A stretch of DNA of 64,000 nt from positions 32,001 through 96,000 of the forward strand of contig MTLP01000009.1 of NCBI GenBank assembly GCA_002009975.1, written 5' to 3'. Origin of the DNA: Thermococcus sp. JdFR-02 (GTDB lineage Archaea; Methanobacteriota_B; Thermococci; Thermococcales; Thermococcaceae). Under the pieces are notes generated by a model. It had not been told where the DNA came from. It made no database searches and saw only the letters and a list, made by a program, of their open reading frames with translations. The position numbers and the translations under genes are program-made. Shown piece after piece: positions 62,745 through 63,139 of this stretch; position 1 is the stretch's first letter; the number at the start of each line of letters is the position of its first letter.

Positions 62745-62993
62745 TCACTTTCGTGATATTACATCTTCAGCAATCTTGATTGAAAACACTAAATCATCTA
62801 AAGCCACTATAAGGCTTTCAATCTCACCGAGGTATTTAACTTTTGTTATTACCTTTCCATCTTTCGGATAGGTTTTAATCTTTAAATTTTTTGGAAGGTT
62901 TAAGTTATCAATCTCAACGGCATTGGCTACTGCCTTTGCGGTGTTTTCATCACCATATTCCCATATAAGCTTTGCTTTAGCTTTGATGTTCAT
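62745..62993 (-). CDS. KEOPS Pcc1-family subunit (probably the Pcc2 paralog)
   Basis: AVANAVEIDN...SLIVALDDLV..IKIAE; between GAN and rps3ae. Confidence 0.85.
   Translation of the reverse strand: MNIKAKAKLIWEYGDENTAKAVANAVEIDNLNLPKNLKIKTYPKDGKVITKVKYLGEIESLIVALDDLVFSIKIAEDVISRK
62973..62993. repeat. 21-bp direct repeat, copy A (first 7 codons of pcc)
   Basis: TGCTTTAGCTTTGATGTTCAT, identical to 63119-63139. Confidence 0.95.
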
Positions 62994-63118
62994 CTATTTT
63001 GCCCTCCGTTAGTAGTTGGATAACTTGAAATTTCTGCTCTTGACATGGCAAATTTTGCAGTGAATAGGGGTTTGTAGAACCCCTTATTTGCTTTTCCGCC
63101 AGCGCTTATAAAGGGCTG
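62994..63118. mobile_element. 125-bp structured non-autonomous insertion (MITE-like or integration remnant)
   Basis: Flanked by a perfect 21-bp duplication; GCCCT...AGGGC closing stem and internal hairpins. Confidence 0.65.
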
Positions 63119-63139
63119 TGCTTTAGCTTTGATGTTCAT
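63119..63139. repeat. 21-bp direct repeat, copy B (overlaps the GAN stop)
   Basis: TGCTTTAGCTTTGATGTTCAT, identical to 62973-62993. Confidence 0.95.

Follow-up and report, generated by a model that had tools for sequence, protein, structure and literature searches.

Between the genes for GAN (GINS-associated RecJ-family nuclease) and the KEOPS subunit Pcc1 of Thermococcus sp. JdFR-02 lies an insert of 125 nucleotides (nt), bounded on both sides by a perfect copy of the same 21-nt segment. The insert is located in a 64,000-nt stretch of contig MTLP01000009.1 (positions 32,001 to 96,000), hereafter the window, whose own numbering is used throughout. We conclude that it is very probably a solitary copy of a small, non-autonomous insertion element devoid of open reading frames (ORFs), which belongs to a family defined by one conserved hairpin end, here called module M. 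An initial annotation, made from the letters alone, had proposed a non-autonomous mobile element of unrecognised type that disrupts neither gene, and this proposal is upheld by empty orthologous sites, a multi-copy family, different duplications around its members and the coexistence of filled and empty alleles in one genus. The main parts of the locus are the following:

62994 to 63118, plus strand: inserted element, 125 nt, antisense to GAN and pcc1, with its orientation set by module M; missing from 7 of 7 aligned junctions in genera g5 and g6.
63094 to 63118, plus strand: module M, TTCCGCC and then the G.G-mismatched hairpin CAGC-G-CUU/AUA/AAG-G-GCUG, which directly abuts the right copy of the duplication; recognised by search pattern, covariation and covariance model.
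62973 to 62993, no strand assigned: left duplication copy, which holds the pcc1 start codon (62991 to 62993 on the minus strand); single-copy at the empty sites of the sister genera.
63119 to 63139, no strand assigned: right duplication copy, which holds the GAN stop codon (63123 to 63125 on the minus strand).
62745 to 62993, minus strand: pcc1, 82 amino acids; from the ORF table and model NF011470 (49 bits, cut-off 27).
63123 to 64000, minus strand: 3′ part of GAN, which runs off the window end; DHH_CID and DHHA1 domains, and model NF053575.

The duplicated segment, TGCTTTAGCTTTGATGTTCAT on the plus strand, occurs at 62973-62993 and again at 63119-63139, so that the copies are 146 nt apart with 125 nt between them. 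Its perfect identity and the presence of the GAN stop and the pcc1 start inside the copies, both reported in the initial annotation, are confirmed by the sequence and the ORF table. A repeat scan of positions 62500-63600 found no other long direct repeat, the remaining ones being at most 14 nt and mostly imperfect, and by an arithmetic estimate the chance expectation for an exact 21-mer repeat in 1.1 kb is about 1e-7. The similarity extends imperfectly to 39 nt (85% identity), the extra part including CCTCC on both sides and a 3-nt match, GCT, before both copies.

The insert is real. Contigs from four of four public sequencing runs, belonging to four studies, span positions 62600-63500 in a single piece. 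Those of two runs are identical to the window and may come from the source of its DNA, and those of the other two derive from a second strain that differs by 16 substitutions and 2 single-base indels over 901 nt. An assembly artefact, the lack of spanning reads by which the initial annotation thought its reading might fall, is ruled out by these contigs, including those of the diverged second strain; a chance repetition of the exact 21-mer is not to be expected, and we consider the probability of either negligible.

The insert is also derived. We searched for the junction in 40 relatives and aligned nine junctions (genera of the family are designated g2 to g6). An empty orthologous site with a single homologue of the 21-mer is present in five of five genomes of g5, the closest genus sampled, and in two of two aligned genomes of g6, which answers the question about empty sites that the annotation had raised. 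At the empty sites of g5 the GAN stop overlaps the pcc1 start, as had been expected from removing one copy together with the insert; the gene overlap that the insert entered is 17 nt long. The sole g4 genome aligned (G003, locus L015) has a different spacer of about 60 nt between pcc1 and GAN, unrelated to the insert. Because both strains carry it, the insertion predates their split, and it is thereby dated after the separation from the sister genera and before that of two strains which have diverged by about 2%.

What relates this solitary copy to others is its right end. Module M comprises the last 25-32 nt of the insert on the plus strand, TTCCGCCAGCGCTT-loop-AAGGGCTG, and is the invariant end of a multi-copy family. 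The relatives gave numerous short matches to the last ~28 nt of the insert, which led to the shared motif, and M was searched with the pattern TTCCGCCAGCGCTT-N(2-12)-AGGGCTG, the reversed pattern serving as control. Within the family Thermococcaceae the pattern is found in 66 of 97 genomes (54/62 in g3, 2/3 in g4, 4/8 in g5, 5/14 in g6 and 0/9 in g2) and the reversed control in none. In these matches the variable middle always completes a hairpin. In alignment A1, which contains 128 sequences, the first variable stem pair is UA in 94, GC in 28, AU in 2 and CG in 1, and the second is CG in 66, UA in 38 and GC in 13; double changes preserve both pairs, each of which has a single unpaired cell, and none of 500 shuffles reaches the observed value. 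The G.G mismatch and the flanking UUCCGC are invariant in A1, an invariance that the search pattern partly imposed. Covariance model R1, derived from A1, matches positions 63084-63120 of the window with 38.7 bits (E 5.7e-7), the next match in the genome scoring 15.5 bits. R1 matches 20 of 20 genomes of g3, with up to 23 copies per genome, and gives no match in seven genomes of g2 or in 30 genomes of the other four families of the class. By its terminal module, the insert is a member of the M-ended family.

The Rfam 15 collection gave just chance-level matches in the window region (E 1.6 or higher), and on 18 related loci it recognised nothing on the element, its only matches there being to adjacent tRNAs, to a C/D-box RNA and, about 460 nt away, below threshold, to HgcC RNA. 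This HgcC-family match (37.4 bits, gathering score 50) lies upstream of an M-ended unit and in the same orientation, and it was seen at L064:1993-2108 (-) and L078:993-1030 (-).

The family extends well beyond the Thermococcaceae. A cross-phylum scan with one genome per species returned at least 120 stretches, 80 of which were listed. Among the 80 matches listed, 24 belong to Thermococcus or other Thermococcaceae, 18 to Aenigmatarchaeota, 7 to Thermoplasmata or Thermoplasmatales, 3 each to Woesearchaeota, Pacearchaeota, Altiarchaeota and Methanobacteriota, 1 to Methanosarcinales, 11 to unclassified archaea and 7 to Bacteria. Five small archaeal genomes (0.7-1.3 Mb) have between 13 and 29 R1 matches each, at E 0.001 or better. 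The seven bacterial matches are attributed to chance, since their middles form no hairpin and five of them fail the AAGGGCTG filter; two, L097 and L115, were taken out by eye before A1 was built. Collections of plasmids and phages gave only short matches at chance level (E 0.3 or higher), and a match in a viral contig, L088, was likewise judged to be chance, its middle being unable to form the hairpin.

Copies with different flanking duplications, which the annotation had named as the sign of mobility, were found in other genomes. Every copy in the set was scanned for a direct repeat shared by the sequence that immediately follows M and the region upstream. Duplications of 12-58 nt, starting 0-5 nt after GGGCTG, are present at about 11 different sites, the gap being 0 nt in the window. 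Two records of DPANN/Altiarchaeota have duplications of 58 and 26 nt around elements of 43 and 36 nt; other records have duplications of 32, 18-23, 13 and 13 nt, and those of the Thermococcaceae measure 16, 16, 15 and 12-18 nt. The elements range in length from 36 to 193 nt, with a constant M end and an opposite end that varies both in extent and in sequence. The segments duplicated in Thermococcus are gene junctions that combine a ribosome-binding site with ATGA, like the site in the window, and the elements stand there in either orientation to the genes. One operon junction in g3 is informative in its own right. Among 62 genomes, 10 are filled and match the whole 725-nt query, 11 match the flanks only and keep one 16-nt copy without the 190-nt element, and 41 have no match at the threshold used. 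This junction represents, independently of the window, a presence/absence polymorphism.

The longest duplication seen is in L099 (Aenigmatarchaeota, ~7358-7396, minus strand), where a segment of at least 58 nt, which has a terminator-like hairpin of its own, is found on either side of a 27-nt M with 16 extra nt.

A second regularity concerns tRNA genes. According to ARAGORN, 23 of the 40 distinct M copies in Thermococcaceae have a tRNA gene on the opposite strand no more than 10 nt after M, and none lies in an intron; for the 110 copies of other archaea the corresponding figure is 26, and 13 more lie antisense in predicted introns. All 62 tRNA-associated copies are antisense to the tRNA, 49 of them within 10 nt of the CCA end and 13 intronic. 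Read in the sense of the tRNA, the order is tRNA-CCA, 1-5 nt, CAGCCC-hairpin-GCGCUGGCGGAA. In a separate ARAGORN run on 21 loci, M made up the bulk of an intron of 42-71 nt at the canonical position in 5, seen in DPANN records. The tRNA-adjacent units of Thermococcus measure about 190-270 nt and are kept by the same tRNA in several species. Their helices show compensatory changes at 8 of 20 tested pairs, and 95.8% of cells are paired against 89.8% in shuffles, none of 500 shuffles being as high. CCA is encoded by 30 of 31 distinct tRNA genes in the Thermococcaceae loci (L042-L087 and L218-L229), regardless of M.

Two further features were seen around these genes. Some tRNAs without M are directly followed by other hairpins (tRNA-Leu in L062, tRNA-Ala in L222). 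A conserved (C)GTGCAC(T) box is present about 35 nt upstream of the first helix and about 150-175 nt upstream of M in the tRNA-adjacent units of L042, L062, L069, L074 and L085, and it could be a protein-binding or promoter-proximal site.

Might the insert simply be filler, acquired passively during the repair of a staggered break or through template switching in replication, with M as a stable hairpin fragment of the incoming DNA? We regard this as very unlikely. For restriction-modification genes, an 'insertion with long target duplication' was reportedly treated by Nobusato et al. in 2000. The available part of PMC2853133 describes such insertions, which carry no mobility gene inside and can preserve the flanking genes, mostly in naturally competent species, and their long variable duplications speak for passive capture. 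So do the solitary state of the window copy, the lack of homologues for the other 93 nt and the GCT that precedes both duplication copies. The restriction-modification inserts are multi-kilobase bacterial gene units with no shared terminal motif, whereas M inserts are of the small size given above and end in an invariant hairpin. Moreover, passive capture leaves unexplained that inserts at about 11 sites, spread over several phyla, end in the same 21 invariant nt right at the duplication, that genomes of about 1 Mb hold 13-29 copies, and that every one of the 62 tRNA-associated copies has the same orientation.

The interpretation as a member of a mobile family has to be weighed against a number of observations. 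The insert is single-copy in its own 2.36-Mb genome (38% G+C), a state that the annotation had listed as counting against its reading, and multiple copies are attested only in other genera and phyla. No match to the remaining 93 nt was obtained from the genome itself, from 40 relatives or from two scans of metagenomes, one with hairpin 2 of the window plus M and one with the exact M of the window, both of which returned zero matches in collections that may lack records close to the source genome. The top of the window hairpin is the shortest in A1. Long duplications are detectable only where both copies are under selection, as at gene junctions and tRNA ends; since neutral copies of a duplication decay, we read their restriction to constrained sites as a detection bias, and we infer from these sites that they are general. 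One Thermococcus genome and records of Thermoplasmata have units bounded by inverted M-like modules, which resembles a two-ended element with terminal inverted repeats more than one-ended copying. On the structural strand of the family, plus or opposite, the evidence is divided: the plus strand is favoured by three of three stem changes in the window and by GNRA-type loops, and wobble cells in helix P3 of alignment A3 number 6 versus 4.

Nor did a mobilising enzyme come to light. The annotation had recommended looking for longer copies that carry an ORF, and none was found: across about 120 loci, the 3 kb next to M contain no recurring ORF, and all-against-all clustering of the 1221 ORFs in this range gave no cluster present in more than 4 loci and none at a constant position. 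No pair of inverted M modules 0.6-3 kb apart encloses an ORF in 100 loci. The reverse transcriptase domain RVT_1 (PF00078) is absent from all 97 genomes of the family, with positive controls that responded, and a separate check of five genomes for reverse transcriptase gave none either. TnpB was found in some genomes, where it does not adjoin M, and it is absent above the cut-off from G057, a genome with 10 M copies. The Y1 transposase (Y1_Tnp) is present in one of five genomes. The IS1634 transposase model NF033559 has no match in five Thermococcaceae genomes and, in five other M-rich genomes, just sub-threshold ones, confined to a single genome. The genome of the window itself has four TnpB-type (Cas12f1-like_TNB) matches over the cut-off, at C12:61144-61344, C14:2954-3148, C31:6847-7047 and C6:113544-113744; the last is about 17.5 kb beyond the window end, and none of the four is near the insert.

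The elements called MITEs, for miniature inverted-repeat transposable elements, carry a terminal inverted repeat at either end, and the duplication around them is short, its fixed length being determined by a partner transposase. M elements resemble them (e.g. Correia elements and SM1-4 of Sulfolobus) in being small, ORF-less, multi-copy, mostly intergenic, strongly structured and flanked by duplications (compare PMC11602168). The duplication-flanked M copies differ in having one conserved end and duplications of 12-58 nt, in the lack of a partner, and in an end module shared by several archaeal phyla. The window copy could still be conceived as the remainder of a two-ended, cut-and-paste element mobilised by a DDE transposase with wide and variable staggered cuts, whose left end was lost or never kept, an explanation that we find unlikely. 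In its favour, units of about 270 nt in genome G045 have inverted M-like modules at their far end, and degenerate ones occur in the copies of Thermoplasmata. According to the accessible part of PMC2266710, IS1549 and IS1634, through an unexplained mechanism, give direct repeats that are long and vary from 8 to 514 bp, and they belong to a family that is diverse in archaea. The reverse complement of the M end, CAGCCCTT, also fits the terminal consensus C-----YT given in the same part of that source, a weak agreement that involves three positions. These insertion sequences are autonomous elements of 1.5-2 kb with a DDE transposase, whereas the model does not exceed its cut-off in any of the ten M-bearing genomes tested. 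None of the seven duplication-flanked copies (window, L052, L070, L073, L149, L099 and L109) has an inverted M at the far end, and the absence of inverted M pairs around an ORF in 100 loci, together with the paucity of IS1634 transposase matches, stands against a two-ended element as well. The left end of the insert (62994 onward) lacks an inverted M and any other terminal inverted repeat, and has just a 5-nt complementarity, GCCCT/AGGGC.

The G045 units form tandem arrays by tRNA genes on contig C1 (L238, L240, L244 and L245, at ~21.5-22.6, 52.6-53.6, 898.9-900 and 927.6-928.7 kb). Each unit starts with the inverted M-like module CAGCC-hairpin-GGCTGGCGAAAA and ends with the M variant TTTTCCGTCAACGC..GGGTTG, and the modules abut with a 4-nt spacer.

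A constant end opposite a variable one also recalls short interspersed nuclear elements (SINEs) and other non-LTR (long terminal repeat) retroposons, which are non-coding, have a conserved 3′ end that is recognised in trans, vary in their 5′ extent and duplications, and need a reverse transcriptase. The likeness lies in the M end, which is constant against an opposite end of variable extent, and in the duplications of 12-58 nt. An M-ended transcript might be inserted at a nick in the target through target-primed reverse transcription from its 3′ hairpin, which would truncate it at the 5′ end and let the duplications vary. On the M strand, the tops of several M hairpins are of the GNRA type (GCAA, GUAA, GUGA), and the helices covary. 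The substitutions that separate the two strains within stems point in the same direction, since C>T at 63049 in hairpin 1 and both A>G at 63064 and C>T at 63082 in hairpin 2 keep their pairs as G.U on the plus strand only. This strand signal is weak, resting on three events in the window and on the 6 versus 4 cells of helix P3. No reverse transcriptase was found in the 97 genomes, and the M family has no A-rich or repeat tail. The short copies are not plain 3′ subsets of the long ones, nor are the 5′ parts, which differ between sites, truncations of a master copy. We give a retroposon of this kind only a slim chance.

How, then, could an element with one constant end have moved? We tentatively propose that the element is copied in, starting with its M end, where the target is broken with a wide stagger, and that an enzyme acting in trans drives this process, which could well be correct. 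An enzyme that is not encoded by the element would recognise M through its mismatched hairpin and the single-stranded UUCCGC lead-in. The 3′-OH at a nick in the target would prime the copying of an M-ended single strand, beginning at the M end, and copying would end or switch template at a variable distance, leaving the other end variable in length and sequence. A second nick 12-58 nt away, followed by fill-in, would create the long and variable duplication. The template might be DNA or RNA, and DNA is favoured because reverse transcriptase is absent. Besides this process, the two-ended element, retroposition and passive capture, some probability is reserved for a mechanism of another kind.

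None of the known families considered passes its own defining tests. IS200/IS605 elements make no target duplication. Their derivatives (PATEs) and the TnpB omega-RNAs share with M an imperfect sub-terminal hairpin next to a single-stranded motif, an end a few nt beyond the hairpin foot and the state of ORF-less relics (compare PMC12558985). The window differs from them by its 21-nt duplication; in addition, G057 with its 10 copies has no TnpB over the cut-off, Y1_Tnp was seen in one of five genomes, and no omega-RNA of Rfam matches. The REP, BIME and REPIN sequences are short imperfect palindromes that follow a conserved single-stranded motif; they are multi-copy, intergenic, sometimes arranged as inverted pairs and species-specific, and their RAYT enzyme is a Y1 transposase. 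M is similarly a multi-copy hairpin after a single-stranded motif and sometimes occurs in inverted pairs. Unlike REPs, it spans phyla and has long duplications, with Y1 transposase in one of the five genomes tested. Casposons are archaeal elements with a fixed duplication of about 14-15 bp, terminal inverted repeats and genes for Cas1 and PolB, and they insert at the 3′ ends of tRNA genes. M elements too are archaeal, have long duplications and occur at tRNA 3′ ends, but in this comparison of duplication lengths theirs, at 12-58 nt, are not fixed. As for tRNA introns of the bulge-helix-bulge type, M lies inside canonical-position introns of DPANN, but the window copy stands between protein genes and M is a plain hairpin; the junction sequences of the insert are direct repeats and are not complementary. 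The contigs of the four runs contain no splice joint across the insert, though contigs are unable to show its absence. Closest in behaviour are IS1634/IS1549, the restriction-modification insertions with long target duplication and SINE-like retroposition.

Our search of the literature found no description of the M element; supplementary files (e.g. the MITE sequences of PMC11602168 and the non-coding RNA tables of PMC5316973) and subscription journals were outside this search and may list it. The 12-nt core of M and its complement occurred only as unrelated strings in two papers. If confirmed, these elements would represent a widespread and seemingly unannotated family of very small archaeal mobile insertions. 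A 21-nt module common to Thermococci, Thermoplasmata, Methanobacteriota, Altiarchaeota and DPANN would imply a hairpin-specific protein that is either conserved or spreads horizontally and is not known to have been linked to mobility. There is a real chance that M-ended elements represent a new class rather than another small non-autonomous insertion element. In its full form, such a class would comprise gene-less elements with a hairpin recognition sequence of about 30 nt from Thermococci to DPANN, would proceed by one-ended copying into nicks through a host or transient enzyme that is neither a canonical reverse transcriptase nor a known transposase, and would offer a route both to tRNA introns and to the uncoupling of genes; we hold this broader proposal to be doubtful. 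In this respect, the accessible part of a recent preprint states that how archaeal tRNA introns arrive "remains open" (bioRxiv 10.64898/2026.10.13.758758). The presence of M in tRNA introns of DPANN would make this question testable.

At the site itself, GAN keeps its stop codon and Pcc1 its start codon, and both genes are intact. They were spared because the duplication leaves the GAN stop in one copy and the pcc1 start in the other. A long target duplication in this way lets DNA enter a 17-nt gene overlap with both frames, the stop, the start and a ribosome-binding site intact, and the same kind of entry took place at ATGA-overlap junctions of Thermococcus operons. The partial GAN protein within the window matches NF053575 (GAN_nuclease, NCBIfam) with 560.9 bits over 291 residues, and the gene downstream of pcc1 encodes ribosomal protein S3Ae. 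Besides module M, the insert contains or gives rise to the following features:

63027 to 63056, plus strand: internal hairpin 1, GAAAUU..UGCU / GGCA AAUUUU; from the minimum-free-energy fold.
63059 to 63092, plus strand: internal hairpin 2, GCAGUGAAUAGGGGUU / AACCCCUUAUUUGC; from the minimum-free-energy fold.
63002 to 63007, minus strand: Shine-Dalgarno-like hexamer GGAGGG, derived from the insert, 8 nt upstream of the pcc1 ATG; read from the sequence, with a putative function.
62990 to 63139, minus strand: by-product ORF of 49 codons, from the duplicated pcc1 ATG through the insert to an ATGA overlap with the real pcc1 start; from the ORF table.

The minimum-free-energy fold of the insert has -35.5 kcal/mol (z -2.05; 5 of 200 shuffles as good), and enforcing the family hairpin costs 0.8 kcal/mol relative to it at 37 C. 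The three-way junction that the initial annotation had drawn by eye equals this computed fold, but it has no support from the family, in which module M, used there for the closing stem, folds on itself with covariation. The hexamer GGAGGG, described there as a new ribosome-binding site, is indeed supplied by the insert and may act as such. The 49-codon ORF, whose first residues, MNIKAKA, are those of Pcc1, matches no Pfam family; because it is shortened in the second strain, where it stops at codon 43, and has many residues changed there, it is probably a by-product of the duplication and not a functional protein.

Most of the insert drifts faster than its flanks: the second strain differs by 6 substitutions and 2 indels in the 125 nt of the insert, against 10 substitutions in the other 776 nt, with no change in module M (63094-63118) and one private substitution in each duplication copy (62988 and 63127). 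These differences bear on the idea that the insert is retained because it serves the host and owes only its origin to mobility. It might be an RNA that acts antisense or in cis, a processing signal, or a cassette with a promoter or ribosome-binding site through which pcc1 and the downstream S3Ae gene become uncoupled from GAN. Fixation of the insert in two strains, an unchanged M amid drift, the position of GGAGGG before the pcc1 ATG, a bridging ORF between GAN and pcc1 with an ATGA overlap at its end, and the retention of tRNA-adjacent members with preserved helices at the same tRNA in several species would all suit such a role. Nevertheless, the rapid evolution of the insert, the shortening and alteration of the bridging ORF in the second strain and the sister genera that do without the insert make it quite unlikely. 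One of the second-strain contigs comes from an RNA library, and contigs show neither transcription nor strand.

In practical terms, little changes for the genome of the window by itself, GAN and Pcc1 being intact and now separated by a 146-nt spacer. The Pcc1 protein is identical in the two strains. Outside the insert and its duplication, the strain differences are unevenly distributed: 62600-62972, which covers pcc1 and the beginning of the S3Ae gene, has none, and 63140-63500 (GAN) has 8.

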